The translations under genes were made by a program, and so were the position numbers. Source: an uncultured bacterium (GTDB lineage: Bacteria > Abyssobacteria > SURF-5). From it: 64,000 nucleotides of DNA. Location: assembly GCA_964453435.1 (NCBI GenBank), contig CAYVQZ010000002.1, positions 179,439 through 243,438 on the forward strand. Direction: 5' to 3'. This document shows positions 16,096 to 24,406 of this stretch, piece after piece. Below the pieces are notes generated by a model. The model was given only the letters and a program-made list of their open reading frames with translations. It was not told where the DNA came from and did not search any database. Each line of letters begins with the position of its first letter. Position 1 is the first letter of the stretch.

Positions 16096-19000
16096 TCAGG
16101 TGGTTTCGGCCCAATCGCGGCAGAGAACTTCTGCCTGCTCGAGGACAAGCTCCGTAGCGCGGGCCTGCTTGTCGGGCGGGTAGCCGTAGCGGCGGAGAAT
16201 CCTTTTGGTCATCACTCGCATCTGGGCGCGGACGTTCTCGCGCAGCGTCCAATCGATGGTCACGTTGTTGCGCACGGCCTTCACGAGTTCCTGTGCGATG
16301 GTTTTCAGGGTTTCATCTCCGAGAACCTGCACCGCGCTGTCATTCGTCTCCAGGGCGTCGTAGAAAGCCACTTCCTCTTCTGTGAGTCCGAGCTTTTCTC
16401 CGCGCCGGTCGGCCTCGCGCAGGTCCTTGGCCAGATTGATGAGCTCCTCTATGACTTGCACCGTTGCTATGGCCCGATTCTGATACTTTCTGATTGATTC
16501 CTCGAGCATTTGGGCGAACGAGCGGGCCTGCACGATATTCTTTCGTTTGCGTGTCTTGATCTCGCCTTCGAGCAACTTTCGCAGCATCTCGACTGCCAGA
16601 TTCCTGTGCGGCATGCCGCGCACCTCGGCGAGAAATTCGTCGGACAGAATCGAGACATCCGGCTTCTTGAGTCCGGCAGCCGCAAAGATGTCGATTATTC
16701 TGTCCGACGCTACCGCGCGCGATACGATCTGCCGAATCGCATGGTCCAATTCCTCGGGACTGCGCCGGTCGCCTGTCACGCTTTTGCGCAGGACGGATTT
16801 GACCGCCTGGAAGAACGCGACGTCATCCCGAATCGCAAGCGCCTTCTCGTGCGGTACGGACAGCGCGAACGCATGCGACAAATCCGTGACCGCTCTCGAC
16901 AGCCGCTCCTTGCCGTCCTCCTGTTGAAGCACGTGCTCCTGCGCGGCGGGCAACACCGACAGCCGCTCCTGCGGATTGGCGGATTTCCACCGCGACCAGT
17001 CGAACCCGTGGAATATGCCGCAGCAGATTTCGTATTTCTCGAGCATCGCTTCAACGGCCCTCGCCTGGTCAATGGCGGTCTCGCCCTGTCCGCCGCTTCT
17101 CGTATAGTTCTCCACGGCTGACTGCAGTTCGTGCGCGAGGCCGAGGTAATCCACAATGAGGCCGCCGGGCTTGTCCTTGAACTTCCGGTTCACGCGCGCT
17201 ATCGCCTGCATCAATCCGTGGCTTCGCATAGGCTTATCCATGTACATCGTGTGCAGGCTCGGGACGTTGAATCCCGTCAACCACATATCGCGAACAATCG
17301 CCACCTGAAACGAGTCGTCGGGGTCCCTGAACCTGTTTGCAAGCTCCTCGCGCCGCGCTTTCGGCCGGATATGCGGCTGCCACTCGGCGGGGTCGGACGC
17401 CGAGCCGGTCATGACCACTTTGATGATGCCTTTCTTGTCGTCATCGTAATGCCATTCGTGGCGCAGAGCGACAATGGCCCTGTACAGGTCAACGCAGATT
17501 CGGCGGCTCATGCACACAATCATGGCTTTACCGTCCATCGCCCGGAGACGCTCTTCGAAGTGGTTCACGATGTCCTGCGCGATAAGCCTTATTCTCTTTT
17601 CCGCGCCGACAATCGCCTCAAGCTGAGCCCACTTCGTCTTGAGCTGCTCCTTATGTTCGACCTCTTCGCCTTCGGTCACCTCCTCGAAATCCTCATCAAG
17701 CTTTGGCCTTGCAGCCTCGTCAAGTTCCAGCTTTGCAAGGCGGCTTTCGTAGTATATCGGGACAGTCGCCTCGTCCTGCACGGCGCGCTCGATGTCATAG
17801 ATGCTGATATAGTCGCCGAAGACCGCGCGTGTGTTCTTATCGGTCAATTCGATTGGTGTTCCCGTGAACCCGATGAACGAAGCGTTCGGCAGCGCGTCCC
17901 TCATATATCGGGCGAACCCGTCAATGAAATCGTACTGGCTTCGATGGGCCTCATCGGCGATGACGACGATATTGCGCCGGTCCGAGAGCAGCGGGTGCTG
18001 GTCCTCGCCCTGGGTCGGAAAGAACTTGTGGACCGTCGTGAATACGACGCCGCCCGAGGCCACTTTCAGCTTGGCGCGCAAATCGGCCCGACTCGCCGCC
18101 TGCGCGGGCGGCTGCCGCAACAATTCATGACACCGCGCGAACGTGCCGTAAAGCTGGTCGTCGAGGTCGTTGCGGTCGGTGATGACGACAAGCGTCGGGT
18201 TCTCCATTGCCGGATGCTGTATGACGCGGCCGGCGTAGAAGGCCATCGTAAGGCTCTTGCCCGAGCCCTGCGTGTGCCACACGACCCCGACACGCTTGTC
18301 GCCGGGGCGCGCGTCGGGCCGGCTTCGGGCAAAATAGGTTCCTTCCGACTCTTTCGCCACCAGAGCCTTTGCGGGAGAAACGCAGGCGCGGATGGTCTCC
18401 TCGACGGCCACGTTGACGCCGTGGTACTGGTGGTAACCGGCCATTTTCTTGACGAGGACGCCGCTGCTGACATCCTCGAAGACGATGAAGTATCTGATAA
18501 GATCGAGGAACCGCCGCTTGTCGAACACTCCTTGCAGCGCCACCTGCAATTGGGGTACAGATTGCTCGGCGAGTTCCTGCCCTTCGATGGTCCGCCACGG
18601 CATGAACCACTCGCGGTTGGCCGTGAGCGTGCCGATCCGGGCTTCTGTGCCGTCAGAGATGACAAGCGCTTCGTTATAGGCGAAGAGCGACGGGATCTGT
18701 TCCTTATAGGTCTGAAGCTGGTTGAAGGCCGACCAAATGGTTGCGTTCTCGTCGGCGGGGTTCTTCAGTTCTATTACCGCAAATGGCAGGCCATTGACGA
18801 ACAGAACGATGTCGGGCCTGCGCTCGCGGTGGTCCTCGACAACCGTAAACTGGTTCACGGCCAGAAACTCGTTGTTCTCGGGGTCGCCGTAATCCAGCGC
18901 GCGCAAATAATCGCCGCCGAATGAGCCGTCGGGGCGCTGGTATTCCACCGGCACTCCCTCGACCAGGTATTTATGAAGGGTGTGGTTGTTCGCCACGAGT

Positions 19001-19245
19001 GAAGGCGAGTCGAGGCGCGCGAGTTTCCGAAAGCCCTCTTCCAGGACATCGGGCGACATGTGCGGGTTGAGACGTTGGAGCGCCTGCCGGAGCCGGCGCT
19101 CCAGCAGGACTTGCTTGTAGTCGTCGCGCTCGGCATGCAGTTCGCCGGGCGCAATCTCGGGACCCGGGAGGATGAGGTAACCCATGCTTTCGAGCCAGGC
19201 CAGAGCGGCCTGCTCGACGATGGATTCGGTGAAGCCGTGGGTCAT
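16096..19245 (-). CDS. hsdR: Type I restriction enzyme R subunit
   Basis: 1049 aa. Conserved HsdR N-terminus [23 protein letters not shown] and helicase motifs (TGSGKS, DEAH). AGGAGG RBS. Confidence 0.9.
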
Positions 19246-19922
19246 TGGCCCCGCCTCCTGCTGGTCCGGGTGCGGTACAGTCGTTCGGTGAAACCGCCTT
19301 CCTTCTCAAAGGCTTTGGCCTGGGCGGCGATCTGGCGGTTGAGGAAATGACACGCGAGGTTCAAAAGAGAGAGCGCTGCGTTGGCCGCGAGTTCGGCGGA
19401 AGAGACGGACTGACACGGACCTTTACGGACAGGCACGGACGAGGAACTGCGTCGGTTGTTCTTGTTGTTTGCGGCTGTCTGTGCGTGTCCCTGCTTGTCC
19501 GTGAGGTTTCGGGATTGGTGAAGTTCTTCTTCGACCCAGTCTTTGACCTCTTGCAGCGTCGAGCAGCGCTTTGCCTTGAATCGGAGAAGCGCCGGATGAT
19601 CCGGCGCCCAAATCGGCAGCCCGCGCTGCCGCAGGAAATCCTCGTAGTCCAGCTTCAGTTCCTCCAGGCTTGCGCGCGCCACGTTGGTGAGTTTCAGTTC
19701 CATTTTCTTCGAGGTGGCCGAGGCCTGGCTGCCCTCGGCAATGTTCTGGACGCCGGAGCGCGCCGCCTGCACCATCTGGTCGTGGGTGCGGCTGCGCCTG
19801 TCGATGTAGCGGTCGCAGAACCGCGCGGTCATATCATAAACCAACTGAGCGACCTGGAAGCTCTTGAGCTTTCGGTAGCCGCCGTGCTTGGGGATCAGCG
19901 GTTCTTTGTCCATTGTGTCCAT
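19242..19922 (-). CDS. Four-helix-bundle protein (TIGR02436/bAvd-like) with C-terminal extension, embedded in the hsd operon
   Basis: [18 protein letters not shown]...GVQNIAEGS pattern typical of the four-helix-bundle family frequently found in hsd loci. Overlaps the hsdR start by 4 nt. Confidence 0.6.
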
Positions 19923-19931
19923 GGTGTTCTC

Positions 19932-20159
19932 CTAGACGGTTCTTGCCACGGTCCGCTCCGGATTGGGAACCCGCATCTCGCCGGAGATGAGCTTGGGGAG
20001 AAGGGTGTCGCGGAGAGCGGCGAGGGTGGGGAACTTACCACACCCCTTATGTCCTTTGCCACAGGAGATGTCCGGCCCAGACAGGGCCAAATAGCCTATC
20101 CTCTCCAGCCATGCCAAGGCGGCTTGCTCGACTACGGATTCGGTCAACCGTAAGGCCAT
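19932..20159 (-). pseudogene. Chimeric remnant: HsdR N-terminus-like ~30 aa fused to HsdS C-terminus-like ~25 aa (recombination scar)
   Basis: [32 protein letters not shown] resembles HsdR residues 1-33. ...[23 protein letters not shown] resembles the HsdS C-terminus [27 protein letters not shown]. Its ATG overlaps the TIR-gene TGA (ATGA). Confidence 0.6.
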
Positions 20160-21262
20160 CAGAAAGGAATCTCCTCTTCCTTTGTCCGCTCTGGCGATAT
20201 CAGTTCGTTGTTTCTCACTTCCCACCGCTTCCCGGTCCATTTCTTCAAGAGCGGTTGCAGCAAATCCGTTCCCTTGAATGAACGCCTATTCTGTTCATTC
20301 GTGCGGTAAGCTTTGAAAACGTGTGTCACTTGGTCCGGGGTTAGATCCTCGAAAATCGACAAAAGGTGCTCAATCTTCCATGCTGAGTCTTCCCAAGTCA
20401 CCGAAGCAGCATAGGCGGAGAGTGCACAATCGAATAACCTCGACCTGTCTGGTAGACGCTTGTGGAGTACCTGGAATATCTTGACTGCCATGCTGTCGGT
20501 ATCAGACCAGCTACATCCACCAAGCCCTTGCCCTTTCGCCATGAGACCGTAGGGATCAAGCCCCAGCCGGACGGCAATGAGCGGTACACCTCTCCCAATT
20601 GCCACACCCACTTCCTGATCTGTCCAATTGCTGTCTTTATAATCTTCAGAAAGCAACGCCACCAAAGCATCCATACTAAACAACGCCCGTTCAATCTCGC
20701 GCTGCCATTCTTCGGTCGGTTCGATGTCCTCATGTGCGACGAACGCCGCTATCCCGCAGCGAGCGAAGGATTCTTTAAGTCTCGTCGCATGCTGCTTGAC
20801 TGAAGATTTATGGCTGAGGAAGATGCGCACGTGCTCCTGCCCCCATATCCGCTTCAATGCCTCAGCCGGAATCGACGAAGCGGCAATACGCGGTCGAAAC
20901 ACTCCGGCTCTTTCGCGCCAATTATCTACCTTTATCGGTTCCACCTCGATGAACACTTCGCTGATATATTCATTCTGGCTATTATCCAACTTGTTGATAT
21001 CATCCTTGATGTGCTTTTGGAGGCTATCCCTGTTTTCCATCACTTTAAAGTAGATATCTTCTGACACCGTAAGCGTAATTGCATGGCCATAGGTTCCACC
21101 ATTCCAATTATCATAGTCCCATCCTTCATGAATGAAGACGACGCCGTTGACGACGATTTCTCTCAGAAGTCTCTCGCCCGTTTTCTCATAGAAGCGGTTC
21201 AAGGTTGCAAGGTATGAATCCACTTTGCCAGGGAGTCGGAATTGGCGGTCACCGGTGGTCAT
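20159..21262 (-). CDS. TIR-like domain protein (TIR_2/DUF1863-type core, residues ~145-240) with unknown N- and C-terminal domains; candidate anti-phage effector
   Basis: VRIFLSHKSSVKQHATRLKESFARCGIAAFVAHEDIEPTEEWQREIERALFSMDALVALLSEDYKDSNWTDQEVGVAIGRGVPLIAV matches the bacterial TIR pattern (F-S-H-K...D-I-x-G-x-W...S-x-W-x-x-x-E...IP). ATGA-coupled to hsdS upstream and to the scar ORF downstream. Confidence 0.6.
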   Translation of the reverse strand: MTTGDRQFRLPGKVDSYLATLNRFYEKTGERLLREIVVNGVVFIHEGWDYDNWNGGTYGHAITLTVSEDIYFKVMENRDSLQKHIKDDINKLDNSQNEYISEVFIEVEPIKVDNWRERAGVFRPRIAASSIPAEALKRIWGQEHVRIFLSHKSSVKQHATRLKESFARCGIAAFVAHEDIEPTEEWQREIERALFSMDALVALLSEDYKDSNWTDQEVGVAIGRGVPLIAVRLGLDPYGLMAKGQGLGGCSWSDTDSMAVKIFQVLHKRLPDRSRLFDCALSAYAASVTWEDSAWKIEHLLSIFEDLTPDQVTHVFKAYRTNEQNRRSFKGTDLLQPLLKKWTGKRWEVRNNELISPERTKEEEIPF

Positions 21263-22566
21263 TTCACAGCCTCCATCTTTGGCAGGCGCAGTTCGCCCGA
21301 AATCAACTTGGGTAGCAGCGCGTCACGGATGGCAGCGAGCGCGCGAGACTCGTTCCTGTTCACCTCGGCTCGCAGAAACAGTGGTTGCGTGTTCTTGTCG
21401 AAGGTGGCAATGAGTTGTGAATTGTCAGGAAGAACGATGTCGCGGCTACCCACCACCTCGGGACGGATGGCGGGGTATGCTCCGCCGTCGGCAAGCCGAC
21501 CGAGTTCTTGTCCAAACTCCGGCCGTGTCGTCGCAATATGAAGGAACGCCCAGTTGCCATCCTTCGGTGTCAATGCAGCGAAACCTGTGGATGCGATTAG
21601 CGATTTCGATGGGTTCAAGGCAAGGAAGTATGCTCCGCGATCTGGTCGGACGGTCGACAGCACGGTATCGCCATGACTCAATCGTCGACGAGCCCTGCTC
21701 GGTTCTTCACCTCGAAGATAGCGGCTGATTATCCCTACCTCGCCGTGCATGACCTCGCTGATCTCGATATAGTCTATGACATCAAGGTGATCGCGTCGTC
21801 CAAGAGTGAGGGCGTTGATGTTAGCAATGTCTGAAATTTTGCCAATCCTCCACCCCTTCGGAATCTCGCCCAATTCGGAGTTCTCAAACGAATCCGGGAA
21901 GAGGTCGGCGACGTCTTTGGGCAGGTTGGGGTTGCGGCCTTGGGCTTTGGCGTGGACGGGGTCGAAGTCCACGAACCAGCTTTTGAAGATGGCCCGCGCA
22001 ATGGCCTCCAGCGTCTGATTCATTCGCCGGTTCAGCTCGATCTTGTCGTCCAACGCCCCGAGAATGCAGGCGATGGCGCGTTGCTGTTCGAGGGGAGGGA
22101 TGGTGATGTACATGCGACGTTGGTCTCGAAGACTCACATACTCCGCCATGTCCGTTTGGCCTGCCACTCCTGAAAACTGGACAAAGAACTCCCGCGAGTG
22201 CATCCAATAGTAAAGCCAACGAGGGTCCAAGCAATCACGATTCAAGACTCTCCAGAAACACAACTGGGGCGCATAGACGAACCGGGGTGTGTCATGTCGA
22301 ACAAATGCGAACCGTCCAACAGTCCCTTTCGATGTAAAAACCACATCTTCGGCTTGACTAATCTTAATTCCGACTTTTGCGAGGTCTTGTTCTGGAAAGC
22401 AATCCGCACCCGCGAAGTGAAAGCCGTTGTTGATGTTCTGCGCCCGCGCGAAAGGAATTCCCTGCGGTGACAACTCGGAGTTCTTGGCGCGATAGCCATC
22501 GTTGATCGCCAATACTCCGTTGTCGATCAATTCGGCAATGGGAGTAGGAGCGATATCACCCGCCAT
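21259..22566 (-). CDS. hsdS: Type I restriction-modification specificity subunit
   Basis: Two target-recognition-domain halves and a conserved C-terminal [16 protein letters not shown] at 22566 overlaps the hsdM stop (ATGGCGGGTGA). The track ORF is over-extended upstream. Confidence 0.85.
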
Positions 22567-24406
22567 ACCCGATATCCTCCAGATTCGCCCAGATGAGCTT
22601 ATCCAACTTGGCGGATTGGGCGGTTTGTTCGCGCAGTTCGGCGGTGAGGCGGGCCATCTTCTCCTCGAATGGCTCGCCGCCTGCCTGCCGAGCCCTTCCC
22701 TCGGCGATGGCTTGCTTGAGCCACCTACGCCCCGCGGTCGTCTTGAGTTCCTGTTCACGCGCTACAGCCGCTTCACGGCTGGTGAACTCCTCGTAATGTG
22801 CGATATAGCGGGGCTTGTTCTTCTTCGTCCAATCGGTTCCCTGCCCAGACACATGCTCTTGCCATCGCCGAGGGAGGTTATCGGTGTGGCCAATGTAGTA
22901 GCTGCCGCCTTCGCAAGCGATGGCGTAGACGAAATACACGCCAGGTCTCGGCGCAGGCAGGCCGTCCTCGACTTCCGCCGCGCCGACGTAGCGGCCGGGC
23001 GTGAGGATGTGGTTGTGATGGCGAATGTCATCGAGCGTGGCGGATTTGCACAAGCCCGGAACATCCTCATATTTTTGTGCGCAGTCCTTGTCGCCCCGCC
23101 ATGCGTGATATGTGTCGGCGATTTTCCGAATATCCTCGTCGGTCAGTTCGCGGTGGACGCGGTCGATCATGGTTCCGAGCTTGCGGGCGTCGATGATTAA
23201 GGTCTCTCCGCGTCGGTCGCGGAATCGCCGGTTCTTCTTGTCGCGCGCGATGAACCAGAGGCAGACGGGAATCTGGGTGGAGTAGAACAATTGGCCCGGC
23301 ATGGCGACCATGCAGTCAACCAGATCGGCCTCGATGATGTTCCTGCGGATTTCGCCCTCGCCGGATTGGTTGGAGGACATCGAGCCGTTGGCCAGGACAA
23401 AGCCCGCCAGACCGGTGGGCGCGAGATGATAGATGAAGTGCTGGACCCATGCGAAGTTGGCGTTGGAGGCGGGCGGGATACCATACTTCCAGCGCTTGTC
23501 GTCTTTCAGGAGTTCGCCGCGCCAATCGCTGTCGTTGAAGGGCGGATTGGCCAAAACATAGTCCGCCTTGAGGTCGGGGTGCAGGTCGCGGTGGAAACTG
23601 TCGGCGTGTTCCGGCCCGAGGTTGTTGTCGATTCCCCGGATGGCGAGGTTCATTTTCGCCAGACGCCATGTGGTGTGGTTCGACTCCTGCCCGAACACGC
23701 TTACGTTGCCCCTTGCCCGGCCTCCGTTGCCGTTGCCCGACGCATGCGCCTCGACGAACTGGACCGACTGCACGAACATGCCGCCCGAGCCGCAGCACGG
23801 GTCGTACACGCGTCCCTTGAAGGGGGCGAGCATCTCGACCAGCACGCGCACAACACAGCGCGGTGTGTAGAACTGGCCGCCCTTCTTGCCTTCGGCGCTC
23901 GCGAATTGCGAGAGGAAATATTCATACACGCGTCCCAGGATGTCCTTCGAGCGGTTCTCCTTGTCACCGAGGCCGATGTTTCCGATGAGGTCGATAAGCT
24001 GGCCGAGCCGCTGCTTGTCGAGGCGCGGATGCGAATATTCCTTCGGGAGCACACCTTTCAGTGACGGGTTCACGTTCTCAATCGCCTGCATGGCGTCGTC
24101 TATGACTTTGCCGATGGTGGTCTGTTTGGCGCATGCTTTCAGGTGTGACCACCGGGCCTCCTTCGGGACCCAGAAGATGTTCACGGCGCGATACTCATCC
24201 GGGTCCTCCGGGTCGGCGCCCTGCTCACGCTGCGTTTCGAGAAAGGCATGGTGCTCCTCGAAGGCGTCGGATATATATTTCAGGAAAATCAAGCCGAGCA
24301 CGACATGCTTGTACTCGGCGGCGTCCATATTCGAGCGCAGCGCGTCGGCCGCCTGCCACAGTTGCCGTTCGAAACCGAGGTTCGCGCCGTTGCTGGTCTT
24401 GGCCAT
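22556..24406 (-). CDS. hsdM: Type I restriction-modification N6-adenine DNA methyltransferase with an inserted YhbQ-like GIY-YIG nuclease domain
   Basis: HsdM N-terminal domain and NPPF motif. An ~85-aa insertion [67 protein letters not shown]...RRWLKQAI (GIY-YIG/COG2827-like) sits between the catalytic domain and the conserved C-terminal helix ([17 protein letters not shown]...). Start ATG at 24406 with GGGAGA RBS. Confidence 0.8.

Follow-up and report, generated by a model that had tools for sequence, protein, structure and literature searches.

A GIY-YIG nuclease-like domain within an HsdM methyltransferase of an uncultured bacterium is probably one copy of a small selfish DNA cassette found in-frame in many unrelated genes

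Why would the modification subunit of a Type I restriction-modification (R-M) system contain a nuclease domain, when nuclease activity in such systems is normally confined to HsdR? The question is raised by an hsdM gene within a 64,000-nt stretch of DNA (hereafter, the window) from an uncultured bacterium of the lineage Abyssobacteria; SURF-5 (GenBank assembly GCA_964453435.1, contig CAYVQZ010000002.1, positions 179,439 to 243,438). The gene (22556..24406, minus strand; 616 aa plus stop in the list of open reading frames (ORFs)) has the Pfam architecture HsdM_N plus N6_Mtase, and an initial annotation made from its sequence had proposed that a YhbQ-like GIY-YIG domain is inserted near its C-terminus. 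We find it likely that this segment is a copy of a short selfish DNA element, a cassette that lies in-frame in numerous unrelated genes among uncultured bacteria and is translated through with them.

We aligned HsdM proteins with the extra segment (n = 21) and without it (n = 12), and found that the segment forms one uninterrupted block that starts with LPAPRPG, ends with GRARQAG and is 94 residues long, and not the ~85 aa first estimated. In the window, this gap-free indel against insert-less HsdM corresponds to a cassette of 282 nt, or 94 codons (L483..G576; 22679..22960, minus strand). Insert-less homologues run from ...EDD straight into GEPFEEKM, and in carriers the block falls at that point, after D/G; an empty hsdM site at locus L005 reads GAGGACGAT joined directly to GGCGAACCG. 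Its placement, behind the catalytic domain of the methylase and ahead of the C-terminal helix, was borne out by the clean block in the alignment and by the closest solved HsdM, PDB 3KHK (E 4e-152), whose alignment stops at residue 481, just before the insert. A whole-protein search returned thousands of HsdM matches, and among the best 120 of them PF01541 was present in 21 and missing in 99. The site is also empty in P0020, the nearest relative by host sequence (90% identity), and the host part of the window HsdM is 85-90% identical to insert-less HsdM. An ordinary HsdM linker, present in most homologues, is ruled out by the direct joining of EDD to GEPFEEKM.

The catalytic domain of the block (residues 491-559; 22730..22936, minus strand) matches PF01541 (E 8e-13; 48.9 bits vs a cutoff of 22.6), and all four motifs quoted in the initial annotation were found. 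The five catalytic residues are intact on the minus strand of the window, with codon coordinates checked: Y494 (22925-22927), Y504 (22895-22897), R514 (22865-22867), H518 (22853-22855) and E539 (22790-22792). Across 30 diverse cassettes, the columns of these Y, Y, R, H and E residues are invariant or ≥90% conserved. When a profile of the inserted block was compared with the PDB, the UPF0213 structures 1ZG2 (E 1e-16) and 1YWL (E 4e-15) matched best, SLX1 (4XLG) matched at 0.006, and T4 endonuclease II matched at only 0.001, over 34 residues. By these profile matches, the cassette domain is a member of the GIY-YIG superfamily, in its UPF0213/YhbQ/Slx1 branch. An AlphaFold2 (AF2) run on the full HsdM with a 33-sequence alignment was poor overall, with a mean predicted local distance difference test (pLDDT) score of 52, and is usable for the cassette and the terminal helix only. 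Within the block (pLDDT 67-90), the model has strands at 491-498, 502-508 and 532-541 and helices at 511-519, 525-529, 544-554 and 557-574, that is, the three-stranded sheet flanked by helices of the GIY-YIG fold. Bacterial UPF0213 proteins are encoded by stand-alone genes of ~100 aa, whereas this block is embedded at residues 483-576 without a start or stop of its own. A protein identical to the window HsdM is also encoded on an independent Logan assembly, and the Pfam and PDB statistics together with independent assemblies rule out chance or artefact as the origin of the GIY-YIG match.

We then examined how widely the cassette is distributed. A word-indexed protein search with the 94 aa gave only HsdM fragments and one other context, so an exhaustive HMMER search was needed. 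Using phmmer, the 94 residues were compared against 1.84 billion representative proteins, of which 5,270 matched at E ≤ 1e-3, and 326 of these also at E ≤ 1e-10. Among the top 150, most matches cover query residues 1-94 (92 of them unbroken) and lie internally in proteins of 100-1,100 aa, and the unit LPAP(R/Q)PG...GR(A/T)RQAG is common to cassettes in differing hosts. Pfam annotation of 108 cassette proteins placed Methylase_S (HsdS) in 72/108 and yielded 31 host families altogether, a lower bound, which include HsdM, HSDR_N, SNF2, DUF1156, SelR/MsrB, trigger factor, TatD, QueC, arginyl-tRNA synthetase (ArgRS), SET, HPPK and cobalamin adenosyltransferase. At the level of genomic loci, the cassette interrupts alanyl-tRNA synthetase (AlaRS), leucyl-tRNA synthetase (LeuRS), DnaG primase, SNF2 helicases, a Type ISP enzyme and HsdR, with the frame continuous on both sides, and cassette copies are without a start or stop codon of their own. 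Because the frames are continuous in AlaRS, LeuRS and DnaG, presumably essential proteins must tolerate the extra domain. These three split genes lie in metagenome-assembled genomes (MAGs) of Candidatus Moraniibacteriota (AlaRS, L039:2194-4419), an uncultured gammaproteobacterium (LeuRS, L041:2026-4893) and an unclassified 'bacterium' (DnaG, L047:2323-4407). With one peptide pattern we counted ~133 copies in 185,579 species genomes, nearly all of them in MAGs; the carriers span many phyla, including Patescibacteria (Candidate Phyla Radiation, CPR), and one archaeon.

Some copies show unusual arrangements. The HsdS protein P0138 carries two cassettes (residues 209-304 and 337-430), and in P0180 (residues 331-447) an internally deleted cassette (LPAPQPGKW joined to LEGEIKAGRTRQAG) directly adjoins a full one; these arrangements look like stages of decay or nesting. 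On an AT-rich contig, an N6_N4 DNA methylase gene is followed by a short ORF with a cassette (L001:265-678) and then by a HipA-like gene. The flanks in this ORF duplicate the tail of a host (LTENEIKIVE ... LTPEEIKIVE), and the cassette termini still carry the GC-rich consensus. Other GIY-YIG subfamilies were also found in-frame (L079:3001-3282; L075:3001-3249; L059, L063, L065, L068, L077 and L083). In an HsdS-type subfamily, LPQAEPG...ARTQTGDP, the inverted repeats are of another sequence and match perfectly over 14 nt (GGCCGAACCCGGTC/GACCGGGTTCGGCC), and the host VRAKM motif appears to be duplicated. In an HsdR-type subfamily of Bacteroidota, among them the cultured Tangfeifania diversioriginum DSM 27063, we detected no repeats at the termini.

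The DNA ends of the cassette form a covarying terminal inverted repeat, CCTGCCTGCGCCGCGG...CCGCGGCAGGCAGG. In the window, the 5' arm (CCTGCCTGCGCCGAGACCTG; 22942..22961, minus strand) encodes (G)LPAPRPG and the 3' arm (AAGGGCTCGGCAGGCAGG; 22680..22697, minus strand) encodes GRARQAG, and the ends of this copy contain a perfect 10-nt inverted repeat. Across 68 loci with a flanking GC content of 26-68%, the termini CTGCCTGCGCCGCGGCCGG...CCGGCCGG(G/A)CGCGGCAGGCAGG are near-identical and use the same synonymous codons. In 1,596 pairwise comparisons, synonymous divergence was saturated in 88% of pairs for the core, as against only 2% for the 15 terminal codons (median dS 0.455). Such comparison of codons across loci shows the cassette ends to be constrained at the nucleotide level. 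The paired ends share a fixed 2-nt bulge (CCTGCCTGC[GC]CGCGG...CCGCGGCAGGCAGG), and in the resulting 17-pair terminal stem (2-nt bulge, one mismatch) 91.5% of alignment cells were paired, vs 29-50% in slid controls. Stem cells changed on both sides numbered 22, vs 5.2 ± 1.9 in shuffles (0/500), and the covarying pairs lie at columns 22-279, 23-278 and 25-276. RNAalifold independently predicted the long-range terminal helix and found little else conserved, and the ends of the window copy are paired with each other whether it is folded as DNA (centroid) or as RNA (minimum energy). An alternative pairing register (i+j=83) was dropped, as the coaxial register with the 2-nt bulge pairs better overall. 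The window cassette also has a second, internal inverted repeat (22688..22711 / 22861..22884; 24 nt, 83% complementary), which pairs the LPRRW-coding region with the AIAEGR-coding region; it occurs in HsdM-type cassettes (L007, L009) and is not conserved family-wide.

The same termini also bound much shorter units. Mini-hairpins of 16-38 nt with cassette termini lie within 3 kb of 12 of ~80 cassette loci, and they also appear as short LPAPxxxRQAG peptides elsewhere in carrier HsdM proteins. Minis are abundant in metagenomes, where a scan gave at least 127 further copies, and the commonest is CCTGCCTGCGCCGAGGCTTCGGCAGGCAGG. Among the matches listed, the mini core measured 28, 31, 34, 37, 46 or 49 nt in 122/127, the base before it was C in 125/127, and the base after it was G in 121/127. 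The full unit of the minis (CCTGCCTGC...GCAGGCAGG; 30-51 nt) is thus almost always a multiple of three nucleotides, and it lies inside ORFs in all three frames and in both orientations. The C...G extension holds for the cassette as well, and the unit is therefore shifted by one base, so that it splits a host codon after the second base; in the window, the true unit is 22680..22961. Cassette lengths (279, 282, 285, 291, 300 and 309 nt) are likewise all multiples of three, and their frames run on into the host. We argue from these lengths and continuous frames that neither form is excised from the transcript and that both are translated as part of it. Individual mini-hairpins of 16-49 nt were recorded at L002:7297-7324, at L007, L008, L009, L011, L025, L027, L070, L072, L076 and L086, and at L087-L166. 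Within the 64-kb window we found no further cassette copies or mini-hairpins (CTGCCTGC...GCAGGCAG, 0 matches); a 10-mer search allowing ≤1 mismatch gave 10 matches vs 5.2 expected, and exact matches occur only at the two cassette ends.

At the insertion sites, host GA precedes the unit, and a pyrimidine followed by G comes after it. This preference holds outside R-M genes, where G, A and Y were found at 31, 27 and 30 of 40 sites, respectively. No target-site duplication was detected, in that direct 2-nt flank matches occurred at 10/112 minis and 0/68 cassettes, which is about chance.

Comparison of cassettes with their hosts indicated horizontal movement. The window cassette is 96% identical in amino acids to that of P0013, a protein whose host part is only 72% identical, and at the DNA level it is 89% identical to the cassette of the corresponding locus, L007, against 63% in flanking stretches of 150 nt and 120 nt. 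Similar patterns were seen for P0005/P0006 (98% identical cassettes on hosts 84% identical) and L009/L010 (cassette 97% vs flanks 73% / 49%), and within HsdM, host and cassette identities were only loosely related (r = 0.23). Two paralogous Type ISP genes of one MAG (L080/L086) carry cassettes that are 94% identical at the same position, with flanks that are 65% / 56% identical. Overall, cassettes shared 89-97% of their DNA sequence in pairs whose flanks shared 49-75%. The edges of high identity coincide with the boundaries of the unit, which argues for homing-like invasion of a specific site and against vertical descent. As expected of a homing element, the cassette occurs sporadically at one precise site among close homologues and is more similar between them than the flanks are. 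For the cassette core, the ratio of non-synonymous to synonymous rates (dN/dS) between the window and L007 was 0.024 (23 synonymous and 3 non-synonymous differences), and the values for other pairs were 0 (L009/L010), 0.09 (L037/L046) and 0.16 (L040/L050). This low core dN/dS, together with the conserved catalytic residues, indicates that the domain is selected as a protein wherever it is sited, including in hosts unrelated to DNA.

We therefore favor the reading that the GIY-YIG segment of the window HsdM is a selfish cassette, and we propose how such a unit might move. The cassette would be an extra surface domain of the host protein that is not spliced out, so that expression of the host gene itself would supply the nuclease. 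The nuclease may then cut cassette-less DNA at a short GA|YG motif; alternatively or additionally, it may cut a branched or hairpin structure formed by the paired ends. Host repair would copy the cassette into the cut site, with homing to the same position of homologous genes as the usual outcome and, rarely, insertion at new GA|YG sites. Hairpin-directed transposition may be an alternative to such homing by break repair. Survivors would be found only in permissive linkers, such as that between the HsdM catalytic domain and C-terminal helix, or just upstream of the EPASxLLxRI motif of HsdS, and the insertion in the window would be expected to spare methylation and assembly. The 30-51-nt hairpins with cassette ends would be non-autonomous or deleted derivatives.

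Several points weigh against this reading. Both the nuclease activity and the mobility of the cassette are predictions from sequence, and the cassette is without a DNA-binding domain. Approximately three quarters of the hosts are subunits of Type I R-M systems or otherwise enzymes that act on DNA, and this enrichment could mean that the domain is useful there. No cassette was found in phages (INPHARED), IMG/VR contigs or PLSDB plasmids; the PLSDB search yielded only a distant stand-alone Legionella gene (40% identity). Copy number appears low, with one copy in the 64-kb window, two in one MAG and apparently one in most genomes, which would be unlike a proliferating transposon. The carrier HsdM set was gathered by similarity to a cassette-containing query, which biases the hosts sampled, though not the incongruence itself. 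Finally, a symmetric protein reading both arms would leave the same covariation as base pairing, and the hairpin or cruciform is accordingly putative.

Could the domain instead be a functional part of the R-M system? A second nuclease in the modification subunit might have been kept as a gain in defence, through HsdR-independent cutting near the recognition site or as an anti-restriction back-up. Such a fusion would fit the intact catalytic residues and strong purifying selection, and many hosts do sit on DNA (HsdS, 72/108; HsdM, HsdR, SNF2, Type ISP and DUF1156), where a DNA-bound scaffold could provide the binding that a 94-aa domain lacks. We nevertheless consider it unlikely, since the identical unit occurs in AlaRS, LeuRS, ArgRS, DnaG, trigger factor, MsrB, QueC, TatD and others, the closest HsdM relatives are without it, and the histories of cassette and host disagree. 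Moreover, an adaptation of the protein would have no use for mini-hairpins or for inverted repeats conserved as nucleotides, and hsdR is present at full length. The claim that a nuclease is built into the modification subunit thus holds only in part: the domain is there and looks active, but a special meaning for Type I systems is unsupported, given that the cassette occurs in dozens of unrelated proteins. An added effect on restriction may exist, though nothing points to one, and with its many hosts, horizontal movement and miniature hairpin derivatives the cassette behaves as a selfish passenger.

Three further explanations were considered. The window copy might be a relic, once mobile and now an inert, neutral passenger domain, as its single occurrence in 64 kb with no minis nearby and its GC content, equal to that of the host gene, would allow; nor is the insertion recent, given that even the most closely related cassette shares only 89% DNA identity with it. 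This copy nevertheless retains every catalytic residue and both arms of the repeat, and the core dN/dS of 0.024 against L007 indicates a lineage under selection as a protein, which makes an inert relic quite improbable. An element acting on RNA, whose paired ends form a stem in the transcript such that the segment is cut out in the manner of an intron or rRNA-type intervening sequence and mature HsdM is left without the domain, would account for the conserved long-range terminal helix predicted on the RNA strand, and GIY-YIG-encoding insertion sequences that are not introns have been reported in CPR rRNA genes (PMC11270868). Yet lengths in multiples of three (in all cassettes and 122/127 minis among the matches listed) and continuous frames would be needless if the segment were excised, and cutting of an mRNA stem without ligation would destroy the message. 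Rfam gave no match at E ≤ 1 in 22400..23200, and RNAalifold showed little beyond the terminal helix; we regard removal from the transcript as very improbable. Sporadic, in-frame insertion of a nuclease-encoding segment into conserved or essential genes also recalls an intein, or the remnant of one, with its homing endonuclease. Known inteins carry LAGLIDADG or HNH nucleases within a Hint fold, whereas the cassette has only 94 aa, in which Pfam finds GIY-YIG alone and no Hint family. Its first residue is Leu and its last Gly, followed by Gly, Glu or others (junctions D/G-LPAP and RQAG-G/E), so that the junctions have neither a Cys/Ser/Thr nucleophile nor His-Asn, and we give this origin next to no credence.

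We next considered the host gene and its operon. A longer, TTG-started ORF extends to 24535, and homologues begin at the ATG at 24406. The encoded protein comprises an N-terminal domain (residues 13-141; 23984..24370, minus strand; PF12161, E 6e-27), the N6-adenine methyltransferase catalytic domain (residues 153-481; 22964..23950, minus strand; PF02384, E 3e-106), in which both the AdoMet motif DPCCGSGG (202) and the catalytic NPPF motif (287) are preserved, and a C-terminal segment (22559..22678, minus strand) that adjoins the methylase domain directly in insert-less homologues and is displaced here by the cassette. The AF2 model predicts a long helix at residues 580-611 of this segment; in EcoKI and EcoR124I, the HsdM C-terminal helix contacts the coiled coil of HsdS. 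The protein scored below the cutoff of the NCBIfam hsdM equivalog TIGR00497 (162.7 < 242.75) and so falls outside that model, but its identity as HsdM is clear from the Pfam architecture and PDB 3KHK despite this shortfall.

Downstream of hsdM lies hsdS (435 aa; 21259..22566, minus strand; PF01420, E 8e-13), which is without a cassette and whose start overlaps the hsdM stop by 11 nt. Inserted cargo genes separate it from hsdR (1049 aa; 16096..19245, minus strand), which appears intact from its ORF and sequence, and the Type I system therefore retains its normal nuclease subunit; the syntenic gene in L002 has HSDR_N, ResIII, SWI2_SNF2 and T1RH-like_C. Between hsdS and hsdR, a TIR-domain protein (367 aa; 20159..21262, minus strand; PF13676, E 1e-15), whose start overlaps the hsdS stop, also has weak ThsB_TIR and nucleoside deoxyribosyltransferase-like matches and looks like defence cargo inside the Type I operon. 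A small ORF (19932..20240, minus strand) fuses a piece like the HsdR N-terminus to a piece like the HsdS C-terminus, and it resembles a scar left by a second or rearranged Type I locus. The gene immediately upstream of hsdR, whose start it overlaps, is a member (19242..19922, minus strand) of the '23S rRNA intervening-sequence protein' four-helix-bundle family (PF05635, 34.0 bits vs a cutoff of 33.8); this family and GIY-YIG have both been reported in CPR rRNA insertion sequences (PMC11270868). At L005, the empty-site reference, a group II intron reverse transcriptase (RVT_1 plus GIIM; L005:1318-2589) lies ~3.4 kb upstream of the insert-less hsdM, and the operon has RhuM, OLD-family and UvrD-like genes in place of the cargo of the window.

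How does the cassette compare with known mobile and nuclease-encoding elements? Like inteins with homing endonucleases, it is selfish, in-frame and expressed only via the host gene, it occupies conserved sites of often essential genes (aminoacyl-tRNA synthetases, DnaG and helicases), and it is sporadic in distribution, with element and host phylogenies that are incongruent. Unlike inteins, it has no Hint or splicing domain and stays in the mature protein, its nuclease is a minimal GIY-YIG domain, and it has terminal inverted repeats and miniature derivatives. With the free-standing and intron-encoded GIY-YIG homing endonucleases (I-TevI, Seg and Mob proteins) it shares the GIY-YIG domain, homing-like spread to the same site and tolerance of divergent flanks, and the I-TevI catalytic domain has a short cleavage-motif preference. 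Those enzymes have genes of their own and a long C-terminal DNA-binding region, whereas the cassette is a catalytic domain alone, of the UPF0213/Slx1 branch, without a start codon and bounded by inverted repeats. UPF0213/YhbQ/Slx1 nucleases share its sequence family, fold and catalytic residues, but are encoded by stand-alone genes in bacteria or act as repair-complex subunits in eukaryotes, while the cassette is embedded with conserved termini. Slx1-type enzymes are structure-specific, and the cutting of branched DNA by Slx1 fits a substrate made of paired element ends.

Elements with hairpin ends offer a second comparison. In the IS200/IS605 and REP/RAYT families, as in the cassette, the cis sites are imperfect hairpins whose bulges are conserved, target sites are not duplicated and there are short non-autonomous hairpin relatives; these families use a Y1 (HUH) transposase on single-stranded DNA and are mostly intergenic, whereas the cassette encodes a predicted hydrolytic GIY-YIG nuclease and lies inside ORFs in multiples of three. 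The 30-51-nt minis resemble Rickettsia palindromic elements (RPEs) and other intragenic miniature inverted-repeat transposable elements in being translated in-frame palindromes with terminal inverted repeats. RPEs are palindromic, lie in-frame in unrelated genes and are translated as an extra peptide compatible with protein function (PMC10969869). At ~150 bp, they are restricted to Rickettsia and have no known autonomous partner; unlike them, the cassette family includes an autonomous-looking, nuclease-encoding form that shares the ends, extends over many phyla and has no target-site duplications.

Previous reports touch on individual aspects of these findings. A GIY-YIG domain inserted in the HsdR protein MCA0838 of Methylococcus capsulatus, with an 80%-identical homologue lacking it, was judged by the authors to be recently inserted and probably of little importance to the function of HsdR (Dunin-Horkawicz et al., 2006; PMC1564403). 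Compared by its description only, this was a single case, in which a recurrent unit, inverted repeats, minis, other hosts and mobility were not recognised. In a 2024 survey, the GIY-YIG-encoding insertion sequences of CPR rRNA genes were found not to be introns (PMC11270868), and they may be related to the cassette. Within the full-text literature, a scope outside which most subscription journals fall, we found no description of the unit, its repeats, minis or host range, the nearest being the 2006 remark on HsdR and these CPR insertion sequences. A more tentative proposal, which we regard as possible though not the likelier outcome, is that the cassette and its hairpin relatives form a previously unrecognised class of prokaryotic mobile element, autonomous, found only inside reading frames, obligatorily translated through and mobilised by a minimal, structure-specific Slx1-type GIY-YIG nuclease acting on its own bulged stem, by a mechanism shared neither with classical homing nor with the DDE, HUH, serine or tyrosine transposases. 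In such a class, obligatory translation without splicing would leave essential genes open to colonisation, as they are for inteins.

The finding carries a warning for annotation, in that a GIY-YIG domain fused to HsdS, HsdM, HsdR or another protein from an uncultured bacterium would be a passenger, and not a new enzyme architecture. The cassettes would also provide natural maps of insertion-tolerant sites in many proteins, and offer biochemistry a very small predicted nuclease with a defined DNA structural partner. If our reading is correct, the cassette is a candidate autonomous partner for in-frame palindromic insertions of the RPE type, and the long-standing puzzle of how such translated repeats move becomes testable. 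It would further add to introns and inteins a third means by which a selfish nuclease gene can inhabit essential genes without killing the host, persisting as a tolerated extra protein domain whose length selection holds to a multiple of three.

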